This document shows, one piece after another, positions 12,927 through 27,915 of a stretch of 64,000 bases of DNA. Numbering within the stretch: position 1 is the first letter of the stretch; each line of letters begins with the position of its first letter. Both the position numbers and the translations under genes were made by a program. Below the pieces are notes generated by a model. It did no database searches and was not told the origin of the DNA. It saw only the letters and a program-made list of their open reading frames with translations. Source of the DNA: Candidatus Krumholzibacteriota bacterium (GTDB lineage Bacteria > Krumholzibacteriota > Krumholzibacteriia > JAJRXK01); NCBI GenBank assembly GCA_963727455.1, contig CAVSGG010000005.1:320001-384000 (forward strand), in the 5' to 3' direction.

Positions 12927-15529
12927 GCGGCCGAGCTCTTCGCAGCGACGCGATCCAGGGCAGCAAGGGCGCTCTCCACGATTGCCTGCTCATCCACTTG
13001 GAAGAAGCGGCGCAGGTTCTCGCGCGTGTCGCTCCGTCCGAAGCCATCGGTGCCCAGGATCGTGAAGTCCGCGTCGATCCAGCGGCCGGCCAACTCGGGT
13101 ACCGCGCGCAGATAGTCGGTACTGGCAATGAGCGGAGTGTCCTCCGCTCCGAAGAGCTGTTTGACCCAGGGCGATGAGTCGCGGGGCGAACCGTCGTTTT
13201 CCCACTCGATGGCTTCGCGCCGCAACTCGGTCCACGAGGTCACGCTGTACACGTCCGCCGCCACCGAGTGTTTCTTCTCGAGTACCTCGGCCGCACTCAG
13301 AGCTGCGCGCAGGATGGGACCGCTTCCGGCCAGCCGCACCTTGCGCTTGCTCTTTTTCGCGCTCTTGCGGAAGAGGTAGGCACCGCGAATGATACCCTCT
13401 TTGATCTCCTCGGGCATCGTGGGCATCCGGTAATTTTCGTTGTAGAGCGTGATGTAATAGAAGATCTCCTCACCATCTTGGTACATCCGCTTCAGTCCCT
13501 CTTCGATGACAGTTGCCGTCTCGTAATGCCAACACGGATCGTAGGCTCGACAGGAGGGTACAGTCGAAGCGAGAAGGTGACTGTGTCCGTCCTGGTGTTG
13601 GAGACCCTCCCCGTTGAGGGTGGTGCGTCCGGCGGTGCCTCCCAAGAGAAAGCCCTTGCCGCGCGCGTCCGCAAAGGCCCAGATGGAGTCTCCCGTCCGC
13701 TGGAATCCGAACATGCTGTAGAAGATGTAGAAGGGAATCATGGGCTGACGCAGGCTCGCGTAGGAGGTTCCGGCGGCGGTCAGGGAACCCACGCTTCCCG
13801 CTTCGTTGATCCCCTCCATGAGGAGCTGACCTCGCTCCGATTCGGAATAGCTGAGGAGAACCTCGGCATCGACCGGGGTGTATTTCTGCCCGATCGCCGA
13901 GTAGATCTTGAACTCGCGGAAGAGGCTCTCCATTCCGAAGGTGCGCGCCTCGTCGGGGATGATGGGCACGATCCTCTTTCCGAAGGCCTTGTCCTTCATG
14001 AGCTTCCTCAAGAGTCGAACGAAGGCCATGGTGGTGGAGGCCTCCACCTTCTCACCGGTGTCCTGCTTGAACTCGTCGTACAGATCGCTCTTGGGGAGTT
14101 CGATCTCTACCGGCACGACGCGCCGTAGAGGCAAGCAGCCACCTAGGCTCCGGCGTCTCTCCAGCATGTACTCGATCTCCGGACTCTTGGGCCCGGGATG
14201 GTAGAGTGGCGCGCTCGCGAGCTGATCATCGGGAATGGGAAGTTCGAGTCGGTCCCGGAATACCCTCAGCTCCTTCTCGCTCATCTCCTTCATCTGATGG
14301 GTCACGTTGCGTGACTCGATGCCCTCGCCAAGGGTCCATCCCTTGACGGTCTTGGCGAGCACGCAGCTCGGCACTCCGGCCTGTTCGGTAGCGACCGTGT
14401 AGGCCGCGTAGAGCTTGCGGTAGTCGTGACCGCCGCGGCGCAGCCTCTGAATCTGCTCGTCGCTCAGATGCTCCACCAGCTTCAGCAGTCTGGGGTCGCC
14501 CCCGAAGAACTCCTCGCGGATCTTCCCGCCGTCCATGGTGGTGTACCGCTGCCAATCACCGTCCAGGGTCTCCATCATCTTCTTCACGAGCACGCCATCG
14601 ATGTCCCGGTGGAGCAGCTCGTCCCACTCTCGCCCCCAGATCACTTTGAAGACGTTCCAGCCGGCCCCCCGGAAGCGGGCCTCCAGCTCCTGGATGATCT
14701 TCCCGTTTCCACGCACCGGCCCGTCCAGGCGCTGCAGATTGCAGTTCACCACGAAGGTCAGGTTGTCCAGACCCTCCCTCGCCGCGAGAGAAAGCGCGCC
14801 CAGGGCTTCCGGTTCGTCCGTCTCCCCGTCGCCCAGGAAGGCCCACACCCGGCTATTGGAGGTGTCAGCCATCCCTCGCTGGTGCATGTACTTGAGAAAG
14901 CGCGCCTGATACACCGCGTTCAAAGGGCCCAGTCCCATCGAGACGGTGGGAAACTCCCAGAACTCGGGCATGAGCCGAGGATGGGGATACGAAGACAGTC
15001 CGGGGCTCAGCGCCTCGCGGCGAAAACGGTGCAGAAGTTCCTCACTGAGCCTTCCTTCCAGGAACGCGCGCGCGTAGATCCCTGGCGCGGCGTGACCCTG
15101 GTAGTAGATGAAATCACCCAGCTGCTCGCCGTCCTTGCCGCGAAAAAAGTGATTGAATCCCACCTCGTAAAGACTGGCGGCGCTGGCATAGGTGGAGAGA
15201 TGCCCCCCGAGTCCGTGAAATTTCCGGTTCGCATGCGTCACCATCGCAGCCGCGTTCCAGCGGATCAGCCGGCGGATTCTGCGTTCCATGTTCTCGTCGC
15301 CAGGGAAGGGTGGCTCCTGCTCCGGGCTGATGCTGTTGATGTAGCGAGTGCTCACCGTTTGCGGAAGACCCAAGTGAAGCAGCCGCGCCCGTTTTAGAAT
15401 TTTGTAGAGCAGGAACTGCGCGCGGAGTTTGCCCGATACTTCCGCGACGGAATCGAGGGCCTCGATCCACTCGGAAGTCTCTTCGGGGTCGAGATCGGGG
15501 AGTTGCTGCTTGAATTGATCAAAGACCAT
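12920..15529 (-). CDS. aceE: pyruvate dehydrogenase E1, homodimeric type
   Basis: DPEETSEW, QGHAAPGIYARAFLEGRL, FPTVSMGLGP, TPP motif GDGETDEPE...NCNLQRLDGPV, GEGLQHQDG, LGTDGFGRSD. Confidence 0.97.
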   Translation of the reverse strand: MVFDQFKQQLPDLDPEETSEWIEALDSVAEVSGKLRAQFLLYKILKRARLLHLGLPQTVSTRYINSISPEQEPPFPGDENMERRIRRLIRWNAAAMVTHANRKFHGLGGHLSTYASAASLYEVGFNHFFRGKDGEQLGDFIYYQGHAAPGIYARAFLEGRLSEELLHRFRREALSPGLSSYPHPRLMPEFWEFPTVSMGLGPLNAVYQARFLKYMHQRGMADTSNSRVWAFLGDGETDEPEALGALSLAAREGLDNLTFVVNCNLQRLDGPVRGNGKIIQELEARFRGAGWNVFKVIWGREWDELLHRDIDGVLVKKMMETLDGDWQRYTTMDGGKIREEFFGGDPRLLKLVEHLSDEQIQRLRRGGHDYRKLYAAYTVATEQAGVPSCVLAKTVKGWTLGEGIESRNVTHQMKEMSEKELRVFRDRLELPIPDDQLASAPLYHPGPKSPEIEYMLERRRSLGGCLPLRRVVPVEIELPKSDLYDEFKQDTGEKVEASTTMAFVRLLRKLMKDKAFGKRIVPIIPDEARTFGMESLFREFKIYSAIGQKYTPVDAEVLLSYSESERGQLLMEGINEAGSVGSLTAAGTSYASLRQPMIPFYIFYSMFGFQRTGDSIWAFADARGKGFLLGGTAGRTTLNGEGLQHQDGHSHLLASTVPSCRAYDPCWHYETATVIEEGLKRMYQDGEEIFYYITLYNENYRMPTMPEEIKEGIIRGAYLFRKSAKKSKRKVRLAGSGPILRAALSAAEVLEKKHSVAADVYSVTSWTELRREAIEWENDGSPRDSSPWVKQLFGAEDTPLIASTDYLRAVPELAGRWIDADFTILGTDGFGRSDTRENLRRFFQVDEQAIVESALAALDRVAAKSSAAY

Positions 15530-15799
15530 GAGATCTCACTTCCATCTCGGACTCATGCACCTGCGCCGGTTCGAAGCTTTCACGCGGGAACTCGATCAGT
15601 CTGCTGGGGTGAAAGAAGCGCTTGGATTCCGTATGCCGTAGGCATTACTTCTAGCAAAAGCTGCTGCTTGCGGCCAGCGATCGTGCTAGCTTACTCCCCG
15701 GCCAGAATAGGGAGCGATCGCGATTTTCGACCCTGAGGTTCCCTCGGATTCTTCCAGAATATTAAATTCGTAGTTCGTTTTATGACAAGGAGTTGAGGG

Positions 15800-16582
15800 A
15801 TGAAGATCCTGTGTTGCGTGAAGCAAGTGCCCGAGAAGGATGCCCGTGTGCGGATCGCCTCGGACGGCGCTTGGATCGTGGAGGACGGACTCGCCTACGC
15901 GCTCAGCGAATGCGATCGGTACGGCGTGGAAGCCGCACTCCGACTGAAGGAGAGCGGAGGGGGAGAGGTCGCGGTGCTGTCTCTGGGGGGTGAGCGGGCC
16001 TCCAAGGGGATCAAAGAGGCTCTGGCGATGGGCTGCGACCGGGCCATCCACGTGCAGAGCGAGGAGTTCGCCAGGGCCGACGCGATCACCATCGCACGGG
16101 TAATTGCAGCCGCAGTGCGCGAGGAGAACTTCGACTTGGTACTGGCCGGGGTGCAATCGGACGATCTGGGCTACAACGCGGTGGGCCCGGCGCTGGCGGA
16201 GTTCCTCGATGCGCGTCACGCCCAGATCGTGCTGAGCATGGAACCCGTCGACGACGGCGCGCTGAAAATCACGCACGAACTCGACAACAACCTCATCGAA
16301 ACCGCCGAAATCAAATTGCCGGCGGTCCTCGGGGTGCAGAGTGGCATTCTCGACGTCCGCTACGCTTCGCTGAAGGGGATCATGGGCGCTGCTTCCAAGC
16401 CGCAGAAGAAACTCACGGTGGACGATCTGAACCTCGAGCAGGAAAGCATCGTTTCCAAAGTAGAGATCGAGAGCCTGTCCTTGCCCCTGAAGACGAGCCA
16501 GGCGGAGATGATCGAGGGTGATCCGGCGACCATGGCGAGCACCCTCCTGAAGAAACTCAAGACCGAGGCCAAAGTTCTCTAG
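15800..16582 (+). CDS. etfB: electron transfer flavoprotein beta subunit
   Basis: MKILCCVKQVP, ALAMGCDRA, AGVQSDD, RYASLKGIM; GGAG-type RBS upstream. Confidence 0.95.
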   Translation: MKILCCVKQVPEKDARVRIASDGAWIVEDGLAYALSECDRYGVEAALRLKESGGGEVAVLSLGGERASKGIKEALAMGCDRAIHVQSEEFARADAITIARVIAAAVREENFDLVLAGVQSDDLGYNAVGPALAEFLDARHAQIVLSMEPVDDGALKITHELDNNLIETAEIKLPAVLGVQSGILDVRYASLKGIMGAASKPQKKLTVDDLNLEQESIVSKVEIESLSLPLKTSQAEMIEGDPATMASTLLKKLKTEAKVL

Positions 16583-16595
16583 GGAGGATGGAAGA

Positions 16596-17573
16596 ATGGC
16601 GAAGCAGATTCTAGTCATCGCCGAGGTACGTGATGGCGCGTTGAAGCCCATCACCAAGGAAGCTCTCGCTGCCGCACTGTACGTGGCGGACGAACCTTCG
16701 GATGTAAGGGCAGTATTGTTGGGAGAGGGCATCGAGAACCTGGCGCAGGAGCTGAGCGCGTTTGCTCCAGGTGGCGTGCTGTATCTGGAGGATCCAGGTC
16801 TGAAGACCTACACTCCAGAAGCCTACGTCTGTGTGCTGAAGAACTTGGTGCAGGAGAGCTCGGCCAAGTACGTCTTTATCGGACATTCCTATCAGGCCAT
16901 CGATTTCTTTCCGCGATTGGCCGCCACTCTCGACGCCGCCTTCATCCCCGACTGCACCGGAATCGAGAGCGACGAGAACGGCCTAGTCTTCAGCCGCAAG
17001 GTGTTCAACGGCAAGCTCAACGCGAGTTGCCGCGTGCGCTCCGAAGGGACCGTACTCACCAGTCTCCAGCAGGGGGCGTTTCCGGCGGGCGAGGCGCCAG
17101 GCGGGGGAAGCGTGGAAAAGCGCGGCGTCGATCTGAGTGGAGTCGAGGCCCGCAAGGTACTATCGATCGAAGCCGGGGAGACCGGAGAGGTGGATCTGTC
17201 CGAGGCTGACATCATCGTGGCCGGGGGGCGTGGGGTCGGGGACAAGGACAAGTTCGAGGTGGTCTTCCAACTCGCGAAGGCCCTTGGCGGCGCAGTGGGC
17301 GCGTCCCGTCCACCCTGTGATAGCTCCTGGGTCGAGCCCTTCCGGCAGATCGGCTCGTCCGGTCAGGTGGTGGCGCCCAAACTCTACATTGCCCTGGGCA
17401 TCTCCGGCGCCATCCAGCATTTGGTGGGGATGCGTGGCTCGCAGTGTATCGTGGCCGTCAACAAGGATCCGAACGCTGCGATCTTCCAGGAGGCCAGCTA
17501 CGGGCTGGTGGGAGATCTTCACGAGATCGTACCGGCTCTCATCGAGGCCGTGAACGAGGCGCGGGAAGCATAG
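16596..17573 (+). CDS. etfA: electron transfer flavoprotein alpha subunit
   Basis: [50 protein letters not shown]. Confidence 0.95.
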
Positions 17574-17576
17574 CAC

Positions 17577-18845
17577 TTGTCGCAGCTGACAAACTCTCCG
17601 GAGATCGAGTTGGGAACCTCGCGACGGGTCAGCGCCGTGGCGGGTCTTTCGGCGCTCTACGGTCTGCGTTTGTTGGGCATGTACCTGGTGCTCCCCGTGC
17701 TCAGCCTCTATGCCGCGAACCTGCGCGGCGAAACCGCTCTTCTCATCGGCATGAGTCTGGGGATCTACGGATTTTCTCAGGCTCTTTTTCAGATCCCCTT
17801 CGGAATCTGGAGTGATCGTTACGGCAGGCGCCGAATCATCGCGGCGGGCCTCTTGCTCTTTGCGATCGGGAGTGCCGTCGCGGCGCAGACCCACTCCATT
17901 TACGGCCTCATTCTGGGGCGCTTTCTCCAGGGTTCGGGCGCAGTGGCTTCGGCGCTGGTAGCGCTCATGGCCGATCTCAGCGGTCCGCGCTACCGCGCGC
18001 GAGCCATGGGGGCCGTCGGGGTTTCGGTGGGCATTGCTTTCGCGACGGGAATGGTGTTCGGACCCACTGTCTACGAGCGTCTGGGGGCTCCGGCGATATT
18101 TTGGCTCACGGCCGCGCTCTCCCTCCTGGGAATTTTCTACGTCGGGATCGCCGTTCCCAAGGGTCGCGCCTGGGAACACGATCACGAGATGGAGTGGACG
18201 AGAGGCCAGACCACAACCCTCCTGCACCATCCCACGCTTCTGCGACTCGACGCGGGCATTCTCGTGCTTCACCTCTTGGTGACCGCAGCCTTTGTCGTGG
18301 GCCCGACCTACCTCTCGCTCTACCGTCCGGTGGAGCAGCACGGCAGTATCTATGCACCCATCGTTTTGGCCGGCGTCGTCGTACTTGCGATCTCCGTTTT
18401 CATTTCCGATCGCTGGGGACGTTTGCGGGAGGCCATCGTGGTGGGGGGGCTGCTCCTCTTGGCCTCGACCGTGTTGTTGCTCTTCGCCACCCGCGGTCTC
18501 GGCTACTCCATCGCGGTCATCGCCTGCATGGTGGGTGGGATCGCGATCGCCGAGCCCGCGATGCCCGCCCTCCTCACGCGCCTCGTCTCCTCTGATCAGA
18601 GGGGAACCGCCGCGGGCATCTTCCACACTTCACAGTTCATGGGCTCGTTCTTGGGGGGGATGCTCGGCGGCGCTATGCTGCGCCATCCCAAACTCATCGG
18701 TTTCATTCTGGTCGCCATCGCGAGTAGCTGGGCCATCGTCAGCGTGGGTCTTCTCACCAAGAGGGACAGGGCTACGAGTGCCAGTCCCTCCGCTCCTGCC
18801 AGCGAGCATGCAGAAAAAAGGCGAGAGGCGCGAGGGCGAGGGTGA
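17577..18845 (+). CDS. MFS transporter (YajR-like)
   Basis: LRLLGMYLVLPV, QIPFG.WSDRYGRR, GRFLQGSGAV, SQFMGSFLGG. Confidence 0.85.
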   Translation: MSQLTNSPEIELGTSRRVSAVAGLSALYGLRLLGMYLVLPVLSLYAANLRGETALLIGMSLGIYGFSQALFQIPFGIWSDRYGRRRIIAAGLLLFAIGSAVAAQTHSIYGLILGRFLQGSGAVASALVALMADLSGPRYRARAMGAVGVSVGIAFATGMVFGPTVYERLGAPAIFWLTAALSLLGIFYVGIAVPKGRAWEHDHEMEWTRGQTTTLLHHPTLLRLDAGILVLHLLVTAAFVVGPTYLSLYRPVEQHGSIYAPIVLAGVVVLAISVFISDRWGRLREAIVVGGLLLLASTVLLLFATRGLGYSIAVIACMVGGIAIAEPAMPALLTRLVSSDQRGTAAGIFHTSQFMGSFLGGMLGGAMLRHPKLIGFILVAIASSWAIVSVGLLTKRDRATSASPSAPASEHAEKRREARGRG

Positions 18846-19734
18846 GAATCCAGCCCGCGAGCGCGTCCACCCCGTAATGGAATCCGCCGTAGACCGTGCC
18901 AACGGTCAAGGCGGGGACGAGCGCCGCGAGGAACCAGCTTGCCTTCTTGCTGCGCGCCTTGAGAACCACGATCCAACAGATTGCGGCCACGGCACAGTGC
19001 GAACTGGGGAAGGCCGTTCCCACCGAAGAGCCCGAGTGCAGAATGGAATGTACAAGCGGGGGGAAAAAGGGTCCCATGAGATGGGGATCGGGCTCGGGGA
19101 AGTGATGGAAGGGACCGGCCACGGGAAAGCCTACGAACACGAGTTGACAGGCCACGAAGACGAGAACCAGGGCAGTGAGATACTCCTCGACATCCGACCA
19201 GCGCCCCTTTGCGGCGAAGGCCACGAGCGGAGTGGGTATGATCAGGTAGTAGCTCAAGTACGCGAAATGCAGATATTCGGACAGCCACAGGTATGGCAGG
19301 CGTTGGTGAAGGATGAGAGGTAGCACCTGCCCATGGAAGAGCGCGCGTTCCAGAGTCAGAATCGAGGAGTCGAAATAGCGCGAGGCGAAGAACATGTCGT
19401 TCAGTTCGCGCGCCTCGGTATAGAGCAGGGGGATGAAAAGCAAAGGTAGAATGCGGCGTGCTAGCGCCAAGGTTCTGCTCGGAATCCGAGGCGGCGACCA
19501 GCGCAGGCTGAAGATCACAAGAGTGAGCGACAGGTTGACGAGGAACAAGCGCAACCAGTGGGCGACTCCCGCGTGAAAGAACGGGAGCAGCAGGACCGTC
19601 AAGAACAGGTAGGCGCACAGAATTGCCTCGGAGGGGCGCAGACCGCGACCGAACTGTTCCAGGCCCAGGCTCCGAACGGAAGGGCCCGGTAGCTCCTTCT
19701 CGACCTTTGACTGTGTGCGCTCCGTCACAGCCAT
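18772..19734 (-). CDS. PAP2_3/Aur1-like membrane phosphotransferase (putative ceramide phospho-headgroup synthase)
   Basis: Multi-TM; FPVAGP, AFPSSHCA and HYGVDALAG motifs; no K-x6-RP C1 motif seen; ATG at 19734 overlaps the upstream stop. Confidence 0.75.
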   Translation of the reverse strand: MAVTERTQSKVEKELPGPSVRSLGLEQFGRGLRPSEAILCAYLFLTVLLLPFFHAGVAHWLRLFLVNLSLTLVIFSLRWSPPRIPSRTLALARRILPLLFIPLLYTEARELNDMFFASRYFDSSILTLERALFHGQVLPLILHQRLPYLWLSEYLHFAYLSYYLIIPTPLVAFAAKGRWSDVEEYLTALVLVFVACQLVFVGFPVAGPFHHFPEPDPHLMGPFFPPLVHSILHSGSSVGTAFPSSHCAVAAICWIVVLKARSKKASWFLAALVPALTVGTVYGGFHYGVDALAGWILTLALAPLAFFLHARWQERRDWHS

Positions 19735-20699
19735 CCTTCCCCACGATACCAGCGCATCGTCGCCTCCATTCCCTCCAGGAGGGGAATCTGGGGCCGGTAA
19801 CCAAAGGCCGCTTCTGCCGCCTGGCTGCTGCAGCTGTAGGAGGGAGCGCAGAAGTCGCGCGCTTTCTCTCTGCCGAACATGGCCTGAACTCGCACGAGGC
19901 CGTGCACGGCGTCGTTCAAGGTTCCTGCTGCGAGGACCAGCCAATCGGGCAGAGTCACAACGAAGACGCGATGCGACGAGGCGTTCGCGAGAGCTTGGCC
20001 GATTTCCCGCCAGGTGTGGGGCGAACCATCCGTGAGAAAGTAAGTTCCCACGCCGCGCCTGTGCTCAGAGGCAGCCAAGAGGCCTGAAACGAGATCGTGC
20101 ACGTGGACCAGTGAGAGATGACGCTCGGCAGAGCCCACGCAAAAGGCAAAGCCACGCTCGGCCAGGCGGAAGAGGGAAAGGGTCGCGGTGTCTCTGGGGC
20201 CGTAGACTGCTGGGGGACGGATCACGGTCAAGTCCGGTCCGGAGAGGGCCGCCAGCGCCACTTCCGCTTCCAGCTTGGAACGGCCGTAGAGGCTGTGTGG
20301 ATGCGCATCGTCTCCCTCGCGGTAGATGGTCCCCTTCTCGCCACGACCCATGGTGGCGAGACTGGAGACGAAGATGAAGCGCCCCTCGGCTGGCGCGACC
20401 TTCGCGAAGCGGCGGTAGAGGGTGAGGGTGGCATCGATGTTCACGCGCCGGAAGATCTCCCACTGCGCCCCCTTGAGGACAGCCGCGACGTGAAAGACGC
20501 GGTCGACCCCATCGAGCGCCTGTGGGGGAATCTCGCCGTGCGCGAGCTCGCCGTGGTGGACCTGCACTTTCGAGGTGTCTAGAAAGCGGAGATTCGAACT
20601 GGCACGCACCAGCACCCGAACCTCCTCCTTTGCCCGCACAAGCGCATCCACGAGATGGCTTCCCACGAAACCGTTCGCGCCGGTTACCAGAACCGCCAT
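19725..20699 (-). CDS. NAD(P)-dependent epimerase/dehydratase family protein (putative 3-keto-ceramide reductase)
   Basis: Extended SDR: VTGANGFVG, VSSLA, YGRSK, RPPAVYGP; function inferred from operon context. Confidence 0.75.
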   Translation of the reverse strand: MAVLVTGANGFVGSHLVDALVRAKEEVRVLVRASSNLRFLDTSKVQVHHGELAHGEIPPQALDGVDRVFHVAAVLKGAQWEIFRRVNIDATLTLYRRFAKVAPAEGRFIFVSSLATMGRGEKGTIYREGDDAHPHSLYGRSKLEAEVALAALSGPDLTVIRPPAVYGPRDTATLSLFRLAERGFAFCVGSAERHLSLVHVHDLVSGLLAASEHRRGVGTYFLTDGSPHTWREIGQALANASSHRVFVVTLPDWLVLAAGTLNDAVHGLVRVQAMFGREKARDFCAPSYSCSSQAAEAAFGYRPQIPLLEGMEATMRWYRGEGWL

Positions 20700-20708
20700 G
20701 GCGGAACC

Positions 20709-21830
20709 TCAGAGCTCTCTCTGATAAATGCGGTAGATGCGGTAGGGTTCTCCCGCGAACTTCTTCAGAGGAACGATCATCGGTAAATTGTCTTCCAGAA
20801 CCCAGGAGCACTCGGCCCATTCGTAGCCCTTGGCCAGCCCCGCTCGTACCACGGCTTGAATGAGTACCCCGTCCAGACCCCTTCCGCGCATTTCGGGCAC
20901 GATGCCCAGAGTGACGACTCGGATCCCGTCGATCTTGCGCTTGTACCACAGAATCTTTAGCAGGCCGAACGGAAAGAGGCGGCCGTTGGCCTCCTTCAGG
21001 GCCACATTCAAATCGGGCAGCCCGAGGATGAAGCCGTGAGCTTCCCCGCTCTGGGCATCCTCCAAGAAAAAGACCACGTCGGGATCGATGCCGTAGCGCA
21101 GTTCGGAAGCGAAGTGGCGCACTTCGCCTTCGGTCATGGGAACGAATCCCCAGTTCTTTTCCCAGCAGCGGTTGTAGAGCGCGAGGATGCGGTCGACTTC
21201 ATTGGAGAAGTCTTTCATGTTGAGTTTGCGCAAACGGACTCCGTGTCGCTGCATGAGCTTGTCCGCCAACGCGAGGAGCCTGTCGAGCTCATTGCTCTTG
21301 CGCACCTTGAAGGCTAAGAGGTCCTTCGCCTTGCGGAGGCCGGCCGCTTCGTAACGCGCGGGATACCAGGCTGGATTGTAGCTCATCATGACGACCGGCG
21401 GACCGGGCTCTCCCTCCACCAAGAGCCCACAACTCTCGTTGGTGGAGAGTTCGAACGGTCCCATGGCGTGCGTGCGTCCCCTCTCCTTCAGCCAGGAAAA
21501 CGCCTCCGCGAAGAGCGCATTCGAGGCCTCGTCATCTTCGCGCAGTGCGTCGTGAAATCCGAAGAACCCCGCTTTGTCTCCGTGGAACTCGTTGTGAGCC
21601 CGATTGACGTGCGCCACCACTCGGCCCACCACCTCGCCGTTGCGCAGGGCAAGGAAGGGCTGCACCTCGGCGTGCTCATGGAAGGGATGCTGCCCAGGGG
21701 TGAGCAGCTTGCTCACATCTGCCTTGAGAGGAGGCACCCAGTTGGGGTCGCCCTGATAGATCTTCCATGGAAAGTCGATGAAACGCTTCAGATCGGCGCG
21801 ACCTTGCACCGGATGGATACTCAGGCTCAT
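20709..21830 (-). CDS. GNAT N-acyltransferase, bacterial ceramide synthase family (bCerS/YghO-like)
   Basis: FIDFPWKIY.GDPNWVPPL, VVGRV, GFFGF, GLLVEG, MMSYNP.WY, WEKNWGFVPMT, LPDLN, GIVPEMRGRG, ECSWVLEDN; directly downstream of spt. Confidence 0.8.
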   Translation of the reverse strand: MSLSIHPVQGRADLKRFIDFPWKIYQGDPNWVPPLKADVSKLLTPGQHPFHEHAEVQPFLALRNGEVVGRVVAHVNRAHNEFHGDKAGFFGFHDALREDDEASNALFAEAFSWLKERGRTHAMGPFELSTNESCGLLVEGEPGPPVVMMSYNPAWYPARYEAAGLRKAKDLLAFKVRKSNELDRLLALADKLMQRHGVRLRKLNMKDFSNEVDRILALYNRCWEKNWGFVPMTEGEVRHFASELRYGIDPDVVFFLEDAQSGEAHGFILGLPDLNVALKEANGRLFPFGLLKILWYKRKIDGIRVVTLGIVPEMRGRGLDGVLIQAVVRAGLAKGYEWAECSWVLEDNLPMIVPLKKFAGEPYRIYRIYQREL

Positions 21831-21851
21831 GAACGCTCTCCCTGCTGAAAC

Positions 21852-23081
21852 TCAGATGAGTCCCAGTTCCTTTCCGACCCGGCGGAAGATCTCGAGAGCG
21901 CGGTGAAGCTGATCGTCGGTGTGCGTTGCGATGTACGAGGTCCGCAGCAGCGCCTTGCCTTCGGGTACCGCGGGGGACACCACCGGGTTCGTGAAAACTC
22001 CACCGTCCAAAAGCGCCCTCCACAATTGGAAGGCCATCTGTGATTCACCGATGACGATGGGTATGATCGGTGTCTCGGTGCTTCCCACGTCCCAACCCAT
22101 TCCGGCCAACTCGTTCTTCATAAGATTCTGGATCTCCCACAGCCGAACGCGCCGCTCGGGCTCGGTCCGGATGATCTCCAGGCTCTTCAAAACGGTGGCT
22201 ACCGCATAGGGGGGCATGGCGGCTGAGAAGATCATGGGTCGCGCGTTGTGGCGCAGGAAATCGATGACCGAGCTGTCTCCGGCCATGAATCCGCCGATCG
22301 AGGCGAAGGACTTGGAGAAGGTTCCCATGATGAGATCCGTTTCCCCGGCCAGTCCGAAGTGGTCGGTGACCCCGGCTCCTTTGGGACCGACGACTCCCAG
22401 CGAATGGGCTTCGTCGACCAGGACGCGCGCCCCGGCGGCATGCGCCAGATTGAGAACATCGGGTAAGGGTGTCAGGTCACCGTCCATCGAGAAGACCCCG
22501 TCGACCGCGATGAGCACGCCGCGGGTGGTGGGGATCCTCTCGAGTTGGTCCGCCAGATCGCGCATGTCGTTATGGCGAAAACGCGCGACCTGTCCGGGGG
22601 ACATGATGGCGCCGTCGACGATGCACGCGTGATCCAGCTTGTCGATGAGGGCAGTGTCGTCCCGACCCACCAGAGCCGCTATGCAGCCCAAGTTGGTTTG
22701 GTATCCGGTGGAGAAGACGAGGGTCTCCTCCTTGCCCACGAAATCCGCCAGCTCGGCTTCCAGTTTCAAGTGCAAGTCGAGGGTGCCATTCAAGAAGCGG
22801 CTTCCCGTGCAGCCTGCCCCGTAGGAGCGGGAAGCGGCCTCACCCGCCTCGAGCACGCGGGGATCATGGGTGAGCCCCAGGTAATTGTTCGAGCCCAGCA
22901 TGACCACCGGCTTGCCAGCGATCGTAACCTCGGTCCCTTCGCTTCCCTCGATCGGGATGAAATAGGGATACAGCCCAGTGGCGCGAGTTTCGCGGGCTCG
23001 GGTGTAGGAGGCGGCCTTCTGAAAGACATCCTCGCGCTCTTGGGTATTGGTTTTCCGACTGGTCTGTGGATTTGGATTCAT
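21852..23081 (-). CDS. spt: serine palmitoyltransferase (alpha-oxoamine synthase)
   Basis: LYPYF, GSNNYLGLT, GSRFLNGT..LH, DHACIVDG, DEAHS; PLP-lysine motif GTFSKS (SPT-type, not the GTLGKA/GTLSKA of KBL/BioF). Confidence 0.85.
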   Translation of the reverse strand: MNPNPQTSRKTNTQEREDVFQKAASYTRARETRATGLYPYFIPIEGSEGTEVTIAGKPVVMLGSNNYLGLTHDPRVLEAGEAASRSYGAGCTGSRFLNGTLDLHLKLEAELADFVGKEETLVFSTGYQTNLGCIAALVGRDDTALIDKLDHACIVDGAIMSPGQVARFRHNDMRDLADQLERIPTTRGVLIAVDGVFSMDGDLTPLPDVLNLAHAAGARVLVDEAHSLGVVGPKGAGVTDHFGLAGETDLIMGTFSKSFASIGGFMAGDSSVIDFLRHNARPMIFSAAMPPYAVATVLKSLEIIRTEPERRVRLWEIQNLMKNELAGMGWDVGSTETPIIPIVIGESQMAFQLWRALLDGGVFTNPVVSPAVPEGKALLRTSYIATHTDDQLHRALEIFRRVGKELGLI

Positions 23082-23654
23082 CGATTTTCAGACATCCAGG
23101 AGAAAGAGATCCTCGGTGTCGCCGCCGGATGCCGAACCGGCTTCCTTGGTGTGCGGCGCGCGCGGGGCAAAAAACAATAGCGCTAAGATGGCACTCAGCA
23201 ACAGTCCAGCAAGAAGGACGGGAAACGACCTGAACTTCGCAGCCGCCCGCGGATTCTCGCCAAGATAAGTCCATGCATGCGCTTCCCGCGGATTCAACAC
23301 GATTTTGCCCGGCAATGCCAAGAAAGAACTGCCCGAATCCGGTCCCAGCAGCCCCCCATCCGGCGCGCTTTGGGCGAGAAATTGCCCCCTTCCACGGCAG
23401 AAAGTGGGTGGATTTGGGCCCCTGGACCGCTCCGCAAGCCCCAAACCCTGTGCTCCGGTGCAGGCTCGATCCGTGGAAATTTTCTTCAATCCAGCGCACT
23501 CGGCCCTCCTTGCGGAGCGAAGGCAAAGAACTCCCTCCCCGCGAGCGCTCAGGCCAAACCCCAACTCCCGGGAGAACCCGAGCGTTGCCATCCGGGCCTG
23601 GTCGAGGCATTCTGCGAGCTGTCTCTCGCGGAGGCGCCGGGAGCGCTTTGGAAT

Positions 23655-24770
23655 ATGCGAATCCTCGAGCTGGGAAAATTCTACCCCCCGGTGCGTGGCG
23701 GGATGGAGAGCACCCTCGAGCAGATCTGCCTCGGGTTGCGCCGGCGTGGGCACCGGGTCCTGGCCCTGGTGTCCGCCGACGAGCGGCGAGCGAGCGCGAG
23801 CTACCGCAAGGGAGTGGCGGTTTGGCGTCTGGGACGCTGCGGACAGATCGCCAGCAGCCCGGTGAACCCTGGCTTGGCGCGCGCGCTGCGGCGTGCTCGC
23901 TCGCAATTTCGCCCGGAACTTGTGCACCTCCATCTGCCCAACCCTGCGGTGGCGGTGGGCTGGCTGCTCTTCGGCGACCCCGAGCTGCCTCTGGTCGTCA
24001 GTTACCACAGTGACATCATTCGGCAGCGCCGTCTGGCCTCGCTACTGGAGCCTTTGCGCCAACGGGTTCTCACCCGCGCGAGGAGAATCGTGGTGAGCAG
24101 CGAAGATCTGAAGCGCTCGAGCAGAAGCCTGGCGGCACATCGGGAGCGCTGTATCGTCATCCCATGGGGCATTGACGTGGAGACGATTCTCCCCGGTGGG
24201 GCCCCGAGTCGGGAGAGTCTCCCCTTTCCTCGCTATTTTCTCTTCGTCGGCCGAATGGTGTATTACAAAGGTTTGGACGTCTTGTTGGCCGCTCTGAAGG
24301 GTGAGAACATGTCCCTGGTCGTGGTCGGAGAAGGACCTCTGCGGGCGCGCTGGGAAAAACAAACGCGCAGATACGAGCTCGGCGATCGTGTGTACTTCGC
24401 GGGCGACGTCTCCCCCCAAGCGCTGGACAAGCTCTATCGCGGTTGCGTAGCCCAAGTCTTGCCCAGTACCGCGCCGAGTGAGACTTTCGGATTGGTGCAA
24501 CTGGAAGCCATGGCGCGTGGCCGGCCCGTCGTGGCGGCAAGGGCGTCGGGTGGTGTGGCCTCCGTGCAGGAGGATGGAATCACCGGACTGCTAGTACCCC
24601 CGGCTGAGGTCGATTCCCTGCGGAGTGCACTCAAGACCCTGTGGGACGATCCGCGCCGTGCCGAGAGCATGGGACAGGCGGCGCGCAAAAGGGTGGTCGC
24701 GCATTTCGACCAGGGGCAGCGGATGAGGCAGCTGGCCAGAGTTCTCGAGGGGCTCGTCGCGAATGAGTGA
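23655..24770 (+). CDS. glycosyltransferase family 4
   Basis: MRILELGKFYPP..GGME, HLHLPNP, YHSDI, FVGRMVYYKG, ETFGLVQLEAMA.G.PV; start reassigned to ATG at 23655. Confidence 0.9.
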   Translation: MRILELGKFYPPVRGGMESTLEQICLGLRRRGHRVLALVSADERRASASYRKGVAVWRLGRCGQIASSPVNPGLARALRRARSQFRPELVHLHLPNPAVAVGWLLFGDPELPLVVSYHSDIIRQRRLASLLEPLRQRVLTRARRIVVSSEDLKRSSRSLAAHRERCIVIPWGIDVETILPGGAPSRESLPFPRYFLFVGRMVYYKGLDVLLAALKGENMSLVVVGEGPLRARWEKQTRRYELGDRVYFAGDVSPQALDKLYRGCVAQVLPSTAPSETFGLVQLEAMARGRPVVAARASGGVASVQEDGITGLLVPPAEVDSLRSALKTLWDDPRRAESMGQAARKRVVAHFDQGQRMRQLARVLEGLVANE

Positions 24771-25602
24771 ACAGGATCAGGTGCGCTTTCTCACCCCCTG
24801 GACCCTTCTCTTGCCCGAGGGAAGGGGCAGCGTTCTCGCTGTGGTCGGCAGCGGGGGCAAGAGCGCACTTCTGCAGCGTCTCTACCGGCACTATCGAGCC
24901 GAGGGTTACCGCGTCTTGTGGACCCAGACGGTGGATCATCCTCCTCCTCCGCAGATACCTGCCTACAGCATCGCGACGTCCTTCGAGCTGCTACAACGCG
25001 AATTTCAGCATCACGCCGCGCTGTTCGTGGCTGGAGAGCGTGAGGAGGAGGGCAGGGCCAGCGGCCTGTCCGCGCGTGAGATCGAAGTGCTGCGCCACCG
25101 GCTCGTGCCGGATGTCGTTCTCGTCGAAGCCCAAGCGCAGAGTGGCAGGCCTCTCCTGGAGCAAGGGGCAGCGCCCATCTGGCCGCAACCGCTCCACCTG
25201 ATCTTCGCGCTCGCCGGTTTGCACGCGGTGGGAAGATTGAAGAGCTCTCCAGAAAAAGTTTCTGCCGGAGAAGACCCACCGCGTTTCACCAGCGAGGATG
25301 TACTCCATCAGTTCACTGCCGCCGGAGGGCTTCTCGAGCAGATTCCCCACGGGGTCCCCTCTTTTCCCTTCCTTGCCGGACTGGGGAGCTTTCGCGATCT
25401 CGACGGCATGTTTGAGCTGGTGGCGAAACTGTGGGAAATTCCTGGAGTCAAAGCGGTGCTTCTCGGGGAACTCACCGGACATGCGCGTATCGACGCCGCC
25501 GAAGAAGCTGCGGCTGCCCAGCTCGGAGGAGGAGCACCTCATCTTGCCGGTGAACGGATCTACGCGCTCTATCCCTCACACTTGGACGACGCGGAAGGGT
25601 AG
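24763..25602 (+). CDS. YqeC-like (selenium-dependent Mo-hydroxylase accessory) P-loop protein, divergent
   Basis: AVVGSGGKS, DVVLVEAQAQSGRPL (compare canonical EADG...PLK), GLHAVG; overlaps the GT4 stop. Confidence 0.55.
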   Translation: MSEQDQVRFLTPWTLLLPEGRGSVLAVVGSGGKSALLQRLYRHYRAEGYRVLWTQTVDHPPPPQIPAYSIATSFELLQREFQHHAALFVAGEREEEGRASGLSAREIEVLRHRLVPDVVLVEAQAQSGRPLLEQGAAPIWPQPLHLIFALAGLHAVGRLKSSPEKVSAGEDPPRFTSEDVLHQFTAAGGLLEQIPHGVPSFPFLAGLGSFRDLDGMFELVAKLWEIPGVKAVLLGELTGHARIDAAEEAAAAQLGGGAPHLAGERIYALYPSHLDDAEG

Positions 25603-25606
25603 GCGG

Positions 25607-25635
25607 TTGTCCCCTCGTCTCCTGGACTCTATACT
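25607..25635 (+). promoter_or_regulatory. sigma70-type promoter
   Basis: TTGTCC-N17-TATACT upstream of the exonuclease gene. Confidence 0.6.
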
Positions 25636-25729
25636 GACGCGCATCGAGGCCAAGCCGAGCGACCATCTCGCGCATGCCATCTTCAAAATCGCCCCCCTTA
25701 TGAAGGAACTCTCCGAGAAGGAGCTTTGC

Positions 25730-26581
25730 GTGTCACACATCGAAATCAACGATCCGCTGCGAGATCTCGATTTCGTCGCATTCGATACGGAAACCACCGG
25801 TCTCTCCGCGGCGATGGAGCGCGTGGTGGAACTTTCCGCGGTGCGGTTTCGATTCAACGGTGAGGAGCTCGGAACCTTCGACGAGTTGATCGATCCCAAG
25901 CGTTCGATTCCCGAGGATGCGGCGCGGATTCACGGGATCAGTGACGCCATGGTGAAGGGCAAGCCGCTCATAAACGAAGTGCTGCCCCGCTTCCTCGAGT
26001 TTTGCGAGGGCGCGGTCCTCTTGGCGCACAACGCGGAGTTCGATCTCGGTTTCTTGGTGCACGAAGCTTCCCGTTCTGCAATCACTCTGCCGACGCCGCC
26101 GGTGCTGGACACGGTGGAGATTTCGCGTCGCCTGCGACCCGATCTGCCCAATCACAAACTGGAGACGATCGCGCGCGCCCTGGGTTGTGAGCCGACCACC
26201 TACCATCGAGCGCTGGCTGACGCGGAAACTCTCAAATCGAGTTTTCTCAAATTGCTCGAGGAAAAGCACCAGCAGAGCAAGCTCGGAGAACTTCTCAAGG
26301 ACACCGGGAGTGCGTTGACCTACGGCTGGCCAGATCGTACGCGGGCGTGGCTGCCCCCTCGACTGCGCGCCATCGACGATGCCATGATCGCCGGGAGTAA
26401 AGTCACCATCGTCTACCAGCCGGAGGGCCAGCGGGAGGAGGCGCGAGAGATCGTGCCAAGGGCGTATTTGCGGCGCCCGGGAGTCACTTTGCTGCTCGGT
26501 CGTCTGGATGGGGGAGTGGAGCGGAATTACCGCCTCGCGTGGATCACGCGCGCGCACATGGCGCAGGCCACCCTATTCTGA
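25730..26581 (+). CDS. DEDDh 3'-5' exonuclease (DnaQ-like) fused to a C-terminal WYL-like domain
   Basis: ExoI FDTETTG, ExoII HNAEFD, ExoIII HRALADA; C-terminus AIDDAM...VTIVY...REIVP...ERNYRLAWI; AAGGAG precedes GTG at 25730 (alternative ATG at 25700). Confidence 0.8.
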   Translation: MSHIEINDPLRDLDFVAFDTETTGLSAAMERVVELSAVRFRFNGEELGTFDELIDPKRSIPEDAARIHGISDAMVKGKPLINEVLPRFLEFCEGAVLLAHNAEFDLGFLVHEASRSAITLPTPPVLDTVEISRRLRPDLPNHKLETIARALGCEPTTYHRALADAETLKSSFLKLLEEKHQQSKLGELLKDTGSALTYGWPDRTRAWLPPRLRAIDDAMIAGSKVTIVYQPEGQREEAREIVPRAYLRRPGVTLLLGRLDGGVERNYRLAWITRAHMAQATLF

Positions 26582-26670
26582 GAGATCCAACTACGCTCGC
26601 GGGCGCCCGATGGGAACCGCCGGCGCTGGGCGCAATATAAAGCACAGACCGGTGGCAGGAGCCTCCAAGA

Positions 26671-26700
26671 TTGACAGGTGGGTGATCTCACTCTTATCTT
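26671..26700 (+). promoter_or_regulatory. sigma70-type promoter
   Basis: TTGACA-N18-TATCTT upstream of the TPR gene. Confidence 0.6.
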
Positions 26701-26775
26701 GCCGCGATTCAAAGCTCACGAGAAACGGTCAATTTGGCTCGAAATTCCACCTTTTGTTCTGGAGGTTCGTGAACC

Positions 26776-27915
26776 GTGAAGTCTCTCGCAATCAGCGTCC
26801 GGGCCGGCGTTTTCTTCTTTCTGCTCATGCTCATGAGTGCCGGACCCGTTCTCGCCGAATGCTCTCCGAGTGAGATGGCAGCCGCTCGGCAGTCCTACGA
26901 TACCGCCTATGCTTTCGTGCAACAGGGCAAGTGGAATACGGCCATCAAGAGTCTGGAGAAAGCTCAGGAACAGTGTCCGCAGCACTGGCAGAGCAAGGAA
27001 CTCCTGGCACAGGCTTATCTTCGGACCAAGGACTACGAAAAGTCCGTGGCCGAATACAAGGACCTCATCCAAGGTCGCTACCACGGGAGCGTGGACAGTA
27101 CGGAGACTCGAGTGCTTTCCGGATACGGATTCGCGCTCTTGAAGGCCCACAACGCCAAGGATGCCGAGGCCGTCTATCTCGCCATCGTCAAGAAGAGCCC
27201 TGAGAAGGAAGATCCACTCAAGCGATTGGTCTACGTGTACGAGGCCACCAAACGCTACGACAAGGCCATCGAGTACGAGAAGAAGCTCTATACGATGAAC
27301 CCCGACGAGCACGAGTACACCAAGAAGATTGGTGATCTCTACCTCAAGAAGGGTGACGAGGCGAAAGCGCAGGAGTGGTATTCCAAAGCCGCCGCCGAGG
27401 GGATCGCAACGCGCGGCTCCTACGACATCGGCGTCGACCACATGAAGGCCGGGCGTTTCGCCCAGGCCGCGAAGGCCTTCGAGGATTACGTGGCGGGAAA
27501 GCCCAAGAGCGCGTCAGGCTTCCAAAACTTGGGCTACTGCTACACCAAGCTGGGGAAGAATGAAAAGGCGATCCAGGCCTACCAGACGGCCCTGTCCATC
27601 GAAGGAGATCGACACAGCGTCGCTTCGAGTCTCGGATTTCTCTACCTGGACAACAAGCAGATCGACGAGGCCGAGAAGATCGCCAAGAACGCCATCGATA
27701 GTTGGCCTTCAGACGATCCCAAGAAGCCCGGCATGTACTACTTGATGGGACAGATCCTGGAGAAGAAAGGCGAGTACCGCTCGGCCATCGACAGTTTCAG
27801 CCAGGTTCTCGATGATCCCCAGTGGGGCGATCGAGCTGCCAAGCAAGTGGAACGTCAACGCCAGCTCATCGCGCGCCAGAAGGCGCTGGAAGAGCAGAAG
27901 AAACAGCGCGGCTGA
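26776..27915 (+). CDS. exported tetratricopeptide repeat protein
   Basis: Signal peptide ending VLA; multiple TPRs (e.g. NLGYCYTKLGKNEKAIQAYQTAL); GGAGG RBS. Confidence 0.9.
   Translation: MKSLAISVRAGVFFFLLMLMSAGPVLAECSPSEMAAARQSYDTAYAFVQQGKWNTAIKSLEKAQEQCPQHWQSKELLAQAYLRTKDYEKSVAEYKDLIQGRYHGSVDSTETRVLSGYGFALLKAHNAKDAEAVYLAIVKKSPEKEDPLKRLVYVYEATKRYDKAIEYEKKLYTMNPDEHEYTKKIGDLYLKKGDEAKAQEWYSKAAAEGIATRGSYDIGVDHMKAGRFAQAAKAFEDYVAGKPKSASGFQNLGYCYTKLGKNEKAIQAYQTALSIEGDRHSVASSLGFLYLDNKQIDEAEKIAKNAIDSWPSDDPKKPGMYYLMGQILEKKGEYRSAIDSFSQVLDDPQWGDRAAKQVERQRQLIARQKALEEQKKQRG

Follow-up and report, generated by a model that had tools for sequence, protein, structure and literature searches.

An Aur1-like PAP2_3 gene that closes a ceramide operon in a Krumholzibacteriota genome and encodes a candidate ceramide phospho-head-group transferase

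The PAP2_3 gene and the operon to which it belongs

The window, that is, the whole stretch of 64,000 nucleotides analysed here, is part of contig C5 of the genome of a Candidatus Krumholzibacteriota bacterium (3.46 Mb in 18 contigs, 88.85% complete, 6.68% contamination). We studied a minus-strand gene of the window that encodes an Aur1-like membrane protein of the PAP2_3 family and stands last in an operon of ceramide genes (Table 1). The gene lies in an open reading frame (ORF) that extends from 18772 to 19944, and an internal ATG at position 19734 gives a product of 320 residues. A GTG at position 19728 is an equally good alternative start, and translation may begin there rather than at the ATG because the database copy of the protein (P0002) has 318 residues and because the distance from the GGAAGG just upstream suits the GTG better. 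The product matched Pfam PAP2_3 with 70.4 bits (cut-off 27) over positions 2 to 188 of the 190 positions of the profile, which places it in this family, while the PAP2 and PAP2_C profiles matched it only below their cut-offs (21.6 bits instead of 27 for PAP2_C).

The order of the operon is Spt, bCerS-like, CerR-like, PAP2_3, so that the three types of ceramide genes are clustered immediately upstream of the gene under study. The SPT-like gene is separated from the bCerS-like gene by 21 bases and the latter from the CerR-like gene by nine bases, and the last junction is an overlap of ten bases (ATGGCTGTGA) between the CerR-like and PAP2_3 genes; the stop codon of the CerR-like gene overlaps the start of the PAP2_3 gene with either the ATG or the GTG. 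The best NCBIfam model for the product of the first gene was serine palmitoyltransferase (SPT), with 518 bits under a cut-off of 640, compared to 373 to 381 bits for the BioF and Kbl models. The bCerS-like protein matched Acetyltransf_1 only weakly, and it was conserved in the operon of related loci at 40 to 73% identity. Both bCerS and CerR were reportedly first described in the Caulobacter ceramide pathway Spt/bCerS/CerR. The assignment of the three upstream genes to the bacterial Spt, bCerS and CerR types would follow from the literature, as far as the available text of these sources goes (PMC11087976, PMC11334938). The likeness to the Caulobacter system is one of enzyme types, which stand here in reaction order upstream of the PAP2_3 gene, and the available text on that pathway differs in mentioning no PAP2-type fourth gene (PMC11087976).

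Table 1. Positions, in the window, of the operon genes, the motifs of the PAP2_3 protein and the neighbouring genes
Feature	Position	Strand	Basis
PAP2_3 (Aur1-like) membrane enzyme, 320 residues, candidate ceramide phospho-head-group transferase	18772..19734	-	ORF, Pfam, predicted model, Aur1 fold match
C2-type motif FPSSH, residues 242-246 (PSSH 243-246)	18997..19011	-	regular-expression scan and alignment
C3-type motif HYGVD, residues 286-290	18865..18879	-	regular-expression scan and alignment
CerR-like NAD-dependent epimerase/SDR-family reductase, 324 residues	19725..20699	-	Pfam Epimerase, 91.8 bits; upstream of PAP2_3 in related loci
bCerS-like GNAT-type acyltransferase, 373 residues	20709..21830	-	weak Pfam Acetyltransf_1 match
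SPT-like alpha-oxoamine synthase, 409 residues, first gene of the operon	21852..23081	-	NCBIfam
GT4 glycosyltransferase, possible accessory gene, probable start 23655	23655..24770	+	Pfam Glycos_transf_1, Glyco_transf_4
MFS transporter, neighbouring gene	17577..18845	+	Pfam MFS_1

A protein search gave 953 matches among the 8000 candidates scored, and the named ones came from Krumholzibacteria, Eisenbacteria, Gemmatimonadota and one record labelled Saccharimonadales. We then compared the gene order of the best 80 of 594 matching stretches in species-representative genomes, each taken with flanks of 8 kb. The closest titled records among these 80 were metagenome-assembled genomes (MAGs) of Candidatus Krumholzibacteriia, with 65% identity, and no cultured species of Gemmatimonadota was represented in the set. 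All three ceramide genes were found upstream of the PAP2_3 gene and on the same strand in 47 of the 80 loci, from Krumholzibacteriia, Gemmatimonadota, Eisenbacteria and, for one locus, Poribacteria. Part of the ceramide set was present and cut by a contig end at eight loci, the set was partial despite enough sequence at three and the arrangement was another one at two. No ceramide genes were found at six loci with too little upstream sequence and at 14 loci with at least 4.5 kb upstream (seven Gemmatimonadota and seven Poribacteria). The coupling to ceramide genes that the preliminary description of this DNA had proposed is thus borne out by the start/stop overlap and by the operon order of the 47 loci.

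A quick maximum-likelihood tree of 79 loci and the window (the length filter removed one locus, and support is SH-aLRT only) placed the window inside a clade of five operon-linked rows of the Krumholzibacteriia type (support 99), and showed the stand-alone PAP2_3 copies as two derived clades, one of Gemmatimonadales and one of Poribacteria. A scan of 66 of the 127 candidate ORFs around 13 of the 14 stand-alone homologues (locus L082 was left out) found no head-group genes; the neighbours included a PALP enzyme, hybrid histidine kinases, MacB-type ABC transporters and unrelated genes. At three of the six Poribacteria loci scanned (L059, L069 and L084), a MacB-type ABC transporter pair (ABC_tran and FtsX/MacB_PCD) is located immediately upstream of the stand-alone PAP2_3 gene.

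Motifs, predicted fold and topology of the PAP2_3 protein

The Aur1-type class of PAP2 enzymes is defined by the absence of the C1 motif K-x6-RP and of the arginine of the C3 motif. The preliminary description had reported FPSSH and HYGVD without C1, and our regular-expression scan gave the same result, as none of K-x6-RP, K-x6-R and SR-x5-H-x3-D was found in the 320-residue protein. In an alignment of 29 sequences that are 32 to 83% identical to the query (alignment A1), residues F242, P243, S244, S245, H246, H286, Y287 and D290 were invariant (29/29), PSSH and H-Y-x-x-D were present in every row, and neither C1 K-x6-RP nor the C3 arginine was found by the regular-expression scan in any of the 29 homologues. 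This invariance argues that the motifs are not due to chance. The genome has two further PAP2 genes, on contigs C6 and C7, which show the canonical K-x6-RP and PSGH with either H-x3-D or SR-x5-H-x3-D, and the C1-less state is therefore a property of this gene rather than of the organism. Membership in the PAP2 lipid phosphate phosphatases (PgpB, LpxE, LPP) was rejected, since both C1 and the SR of C3 are missing from the protein and C1 is present in the other two genes.

The AlphaFold2 model built on alignment A1 had a mean pLDDT of 92.3 and a pTM of 0.89, with eight long helices predicted to cross the membrane. A Foldseek search with this model returned the Aur1 structures 9vj4_A (E 2.1e-4) and 9ivc_A (E 3.4e-4), and the same two structures were the best match in VIA-align, with a Z of 19.6 and a root-mean-square deviation of 4.1 over 256 to 260 residues between positions 21 and 311 of the model. 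LpxE came next, with a Z of 16.0 over 164 core residues only, while PgpB, G6PC1 and acid phosphatases gave Z values of 13 to 14. SMSr (8ijq_A) ranked 24th, under Aur1 and several phosphatases, with a Z of 10.8 over 197 residues. The additional N-terminal helices of the model match Aur1 and not the six-helix phosphatases, so that the predicted model has an Aur1-like fold over the whole protein, N-terminal helices included. Look-ups of the PAP2_3 and GNAT-type proteins in the ESM Atlas returned only generic 'PAP2' and 'GNAT' clusters.

In the available text on Aur1, residues H255, H294 and D298 are each essential, and a mechanism in two steps through a phosphoinositol-histidine intermediate is proposed (PMC13133130). 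Judging from their position in the motifs, H246, H286 and D290 would correspond to H255, H294 and D298, respectively, which gives the protein the His-His-Asp catalytic triad as defined in that source. The loops that bear the motifs contain no lysine or arginine, whereas the alternate loops are basic, as are the two ends of the chain; by the positive-inside rule, the active site is probably on the periplasmic face. CerR is periplasmic in Caulobacter, according to the available text (PMC11087976), which is consistent with a periplasm-facing next step by the PAP2_3 protein.

Comparison with Aur1, the catalytic subunit of the inositol phosphorylceramide (IPC) synthase of Saccharomyces cerevisiae (PDB 9vj4 and 9ivc; available text of PMC13133130 and PMC12122681), showed that both proteins belong to Pfam PAP2_3, have the His-His-Asp triad, lack C1 and adopt an eight-helix fold, and that both would act after ceramide synthesis with an active site on the non-cytoplasmic face, a location that is a prediction for the bacterial protein. 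However, Aur1 works with the Kei1 subunit, whereas the Krumholzibacteriota gene is bacterial and operon-encoded, with a donor that can be deduced only from gene content. No small membrane-protein gene was seen inside the four-gene operon, in which no search aimed at a Kei1-like partner was made. The sphingomyelin synthases (SMS) and SMSr (PDB 8ijq) are also C1-less PAP2-type transferases that move the phospho-head group of a glycerophospholipid to ceramide, but they match the protein less well, both in structure and in the PAP2_C score, and their donors, phosphatidylcholine (PC) and phosphatidylethanolamine (PE), have no recognisable synthesis genes in the genus. The view that the gene belongs with the Aur1 and SMS types and not with the phosphatase-type PAP2 enzymes, already put forward from the first look at the sequence, agrees with the triad, with the absence of C1 and of the C3 arginine and with Aur1 as the best match over the whole fold. 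We regard both the enzyme class and the coupling to ceramide as well supported.

Donor genes in the source genome and in the phylum

The preliminary description had noted no inositol genes nearby and had suggested, from this, a different head group (phosphoethanolamine, phosphoglycerol or phosphocholine). The genome-wide search for myo-inositol-phosphate synthase (MIPS) that it had proposed as a check did find the gene, with 329.5 bits, on contig C10, and a PIP-synthase-like gene (PIP, phosphatidylinositol phosphate), a PgpA-family phosphatase and CdsA were also present elsewhere in the genome, so that the argument from distance is not supported. The neighbours of the MIPS gene (locus L002, positions 10000-29999 of contig C10 of the source genome, G000) are surface-polysaccharide genes (DegT aminotransferases, Bac_transf, Wzy_C and Polysacc_synt_2), with no lipid genes in the region beside it, and a stretch of about 1.2 kb that adjoins it holds only ORFs without a Pfam match. 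MIPS was found within the 8-kb flanks at none of the 80 related loci.

The source genome has a single CDP-alcohol phosphatidyltransferase gene, the PIP-synthase-like gene of contig C7. Its product scored 155.6 bits with the model of archaetidylinositol phosphate synthase (cut-off 180), 136.4 bits with that of PIP synthase (cut-off 170) and 127.8 bits with that of the Bacteroides BT1523-type PIP synthase (cut-off 350), compared to 38 bits with the pgsA model. We then searched five genomes, 89 to 99% complete, namely the source genome, three others of the genus and one of the family. The PIP-synthase-like gene was the only CDP-alcohol transferase gene in all four genomes of the genus, none of which had a transferase of the PgsA, PssA or Pcs type, and Psd was found in none of the five genomes of the family. 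A PgpA-family phosphatase and CdsA were present in all five; in the source genome, the former lies 157 kb upstream on contig C5. A PLD-like protein encoded on contig C9 gave ambiguous weak matches (DrmC, cardiolipin synthase, nuclease) and was not used for or against the synthesis of phosphatidylserine or cardiolipin.

A known bacterial case is BT_1522, the phosphoinositol dihydroceramide synthase of Bacteroides thetaiotaomicron (NF052609; available text of PMC9246714), which is also an Aur1 homologue. According to the same text, the route to phosphatidylinositol (PI) in that organism consists of MIPS, PIP synthase and a PgpA-type PIP phosphatase, BT_1525 being the PgpA-family member (PMC9246714), and genes of these types occur in both genomes. 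The settings differ, however, since BT_1522 is located in an inositol cluster away from the ceramide genes, as the preliminary description had correctly stated for the Bacteroides homologue (PMC9246714, available text), whereas the PAP2_3 gene is in the ceramide operon and the inositol genes are dispersed over C10 (MIPS), C7 (PIP synthase-like) and the distant part of C5 (PgpA family).

The same genes were counted in 201 sampled genomes of the phylum Krumholzibacteriota, of which 89 carry the PAP2_3 gene and 112 do not. The carriers are concentrated in families f1 (7/9) and f5 (80/86), with one in family f8 (1/12) and none in all the others. A bCerS-like gene was found in 84 of the 89 carriers and in two of the 112 non-carriers. 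MIPS was present in 82 carriers and 100 non-carriers, and the PIP-synthase-like gene in 85 and 108, respectively; the carriers without MIPS (seven) or without the PIP-synthase-like gene (four) are 59 to 95% complete. PgsA-like genes (TIGR00560, E <= 1e-15) were detected in one carrier compared to 74 non-carriers. By family, they were absent from the operon families f1 (0/9) and f5 (0/86) and frequent in f2 (12/12), f6 (22/23) and f7 (8/8), so that, at the level of families, PgsA-like genes and the ceramide/PAP2_3 operon hardly ever coincide, and a single genome, G027, has both. Psd was found in one carrier and three non-carriers, that is, in four of the 201 genomes and in one of the 125 high-quality ones, and 88 of the 89 carriers, all but G027, had neither Psd nor a PgsA-like gene. 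The PE, PG (phosphatidylglycerol) and PC donors that had been suggested at first are therefore poorly matched by the gene content of the genus and of the phylum.

Since the genes of the PI route are present and no Psd or PgsA-like gene was found, PI is the only recognisable donor in the source genome. The availability of PI, together with the failure to find the known routes to PE, PG and PC, is our main reason to read the gene as an IPC synthase gene. On balance, we judge it probable, if only slightly so, that the protein is a PI:ceramide phosphoinositol transferase of a family distinct from that of Bacteroides BT_1522. Its most likely product would be the ceramide phosphoinositol IPC. The protein would be an inner-membrane Aur1-type phosphotransferase of eight helices, with an active site facing the periplasm, acting after the Spt, bCerS-like and CerR-like enzymes. 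By analogy with Aur1, H286, activated by D290, would attack the phosphodiester of PI in a first step, with release of diacylglycerol and formation of a phosphoinositol-enzyme intermediate; in a second step, H246 would activate the C1 hydroxyl of (dihydro)ceramide, which would take over the phosphoinositol to give IPC.

Rival readings, neighbouring genes and significance

Several observations weigh against the IPC synthase reading. The protein is only 17 to 20% identical to Aur1, and a sequence-profile search of the PDB with alignment A1 did not reach Aur1 and gave only marginal matches to LpxE and PgpB (E 0.009-0.04); sequence alone therefore does not place the family. The Aur1 structures are described in the available text as bound to ceramide and to inhibitor, none being bound to PI (PMC13133130), which leaves no inositol-bound pocket of Aur1 to compare with that of the protein. 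Membership in the BT_1522 equivalog was tried and rejected, as the match covered only the C-terminal 72 residues with 17.4 bits (cut-off 480), and the protein is not an orthologue. The PIP-synthase-like gene is under all three curated cut-offs given above. MIPS and this gene are near-universal in the phylum with or without PAP2_3, which indicates availability and no specific co-variation, and their profiling within the phylum therefore cannot discriminate between head groups. As the genomes are kin, the PgsA/Psd pattern amounts to very few evolutionary events, in families f1 and f5, and is overstated by Fisher values computed from these counts; moreover, the lack of Psd and PgsA on which the argument is built means the absence of known families from MAGs. 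The relatives in other phyla, considered below, add to these points.

The same transferase might use another head group, i.e., phosphoethanolamine, phosphoglycerol or phosphocholine taken from PE, PG or PC, or phosphoinositol phosphate taken from PIP, and would then make a phosphosphingolipid other than IPC. We consider this unlikely, and a head group other than inositol is less likely than inositol in the source organism, where no PE, PG or PC synthesis gene was found in the four to five genomes of the genus and family and where the carriers of the phylum nearly all lack Psd and PgsA-like genes. The distance of the protein from both characterised IPC synthases favours another head group, and so do the relatives in other phyla. 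MIPS was missing from eight of the nine Poribacteria genomes with a homologue, several of which are complete chromosomes, but the five MIPS-less genomes checked (G205, G406, G407, G408 and G410, with loci L132, L134, L138, L137 and L133, respectively) still have a PIP-synthase-like gene (116 to 165 bits with the PIP and archaetidylinositol phosphate synthase models), along with two PgsA-like genes. MIPS was present in seven of 11 Eisenbacteria genomes, a count given without their completeness. In a sample of 201 Gemmatimonadota genomes, with 112 carriers and 89 non-carriers, MIPS was found in 110 carriers and 63 non-carriers, a difference that speaks for PI as the donor, and the PIP-synthase-like gene in 111 and 84, respectively. 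When three genomes flagged as unpublished (G262, G387 and G362) were removed, these counts became 108/110 and 62/88 for MIPS and 109/110 and 83/88 for the PIP-synthase-like gene. Both Psd and PgsA were present in the three Gemmatimonadota carriers checked (G201-G203), and 30 of the 112 carriers have two to three PAP2_3 paralogues, a number that fits a diversified specificity. Other donors are thus possible in Gemmatimonadota, and the head group of the family may vary, because in both Gemmatimonadota and Poribacteria the relatives occur alongside further potential donors. In many Gemmatimonadota genomes (e.g., G336, G281 and G288) MIPS adjoins the PIP-synthase-like gene, and it often shares a contig with the PAP2_3 gene, at a distance of 30 to 80 kb.

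A hydrolase, either a lipid phosphatase or an enzyme like phospholipase C acting for example on ceramide-1-phosphate, PIP or PI, is in our opinion quite improbable. The core fold is common to LpxE, PgpB and G6PC1 (Z 13-16), there is a weak NCBIfam match to the undecaprenyl-diphosphatase SepP (20.7 bits), and SMSr is described in the available text as a PE-specific phospholipase C (PMC12594915). However, the lysine and arginine of C1 and the arginine of C3, which bind a phosphate monoester, are missing from all 29 aligned sequences and kept in both other PAP2 genes of this genome, the extra N-terminal helices match those of Aur1, and it is hard to see what role a phosphatase would play as the last gene of a ceramide operon in a genome in which no ceramide kinase was seen, although no search aimed at one was made. 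The LpxT of Escherichia coli is a PAP2 enzyme able to transfer phosphate from undecaprenyl diphosphate. A comparable transfer here, which would give ceramide-1-phosphate, is favoured only by a PAP2 active site that is predicted to face the periplasm and by the link of the operon to ceramide, while the protein has neither the C1 motif nor the C3 arginine to hold a diphosphate or monophosphate and is best matched by Aur1; we regard it as very improbable.

Two genes flank the operon. The GT4 gene is divergent from the SPT-like gene over a spacer of 573 bp and has kept this position in L007, L008 and L010, the three closest loci; its product could glycosylate ceramide or the inositol head. The MFS gene is convergent with the PAP2_3 gene, their 3' ends overlapping by 74 bp, and a homologue is located near PAP2_3 in the same three loci and in five Eisenbacteria loci (L012, L045, L058, L061 and L070). 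A YqeC-like gene (24763-25602; selenium cofactor biosynthesis family, 55 bits under the NCBIfam cut-off of 73) overlaps the last eight bases of the GT4 gene with its start and is conserved in L007 and L008. Beside the MFS gene, two electron-transfer-flavoprotein-like ORFs (15800-17573), labelled EtfB and EtfA without a family scan, are syntenic in L007, L008 and L010 at 63 to 73% identity. The Rfam scan of positions 15000-27000, which include the 573-bp spacer, gave no match, and the scans of positions 17000-25000 gave no promoter-like site and ten terminator-like sites compared to 5.6 expected, none of them convincingly placed.

Among open-access papers and preprints, we found none that reports inositol lipids or a homologue of Aur1 for these phyla. 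Spt-like genes have been reported from 38 phyla in a study of the Black Sea, the main text of which, as available, names none of the phyla that bear PAP2_3 and no PAP2 gene. Ceramide-making genes are known in bacteria, and genes for a phosphate head group have been assigned in very few cases, such as BT_1522 in Bacteroides. In at least four phyla about which little is known, the PAP2_3 family described here is a concrete candidate for the head-group step. Should its head group indeed be inositol, it would be a second, independent bacterial family of IPC synthases, and it would point to bacteria in which the only glycerophospholipid route that can be recognised is the one to PI. As PG is usually taken to be near-universal among bacteria, such a PI-only route would be unusual. 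More tentatively, families f1 and f5 may have given up PG and PE altogether, every phospholipid of their membranes then carrying an inositol phosphate head (PI on glycerol, IPC on ceramide) and the ceramide/PAP2_3 operon replacing the anionic lipids derived from PgsA, a scenario that we regard as possible rather than probable. If it is true, these bacteria would have a membrane chemistry close to that of fungi, reached through an IPC synthase family of their own.

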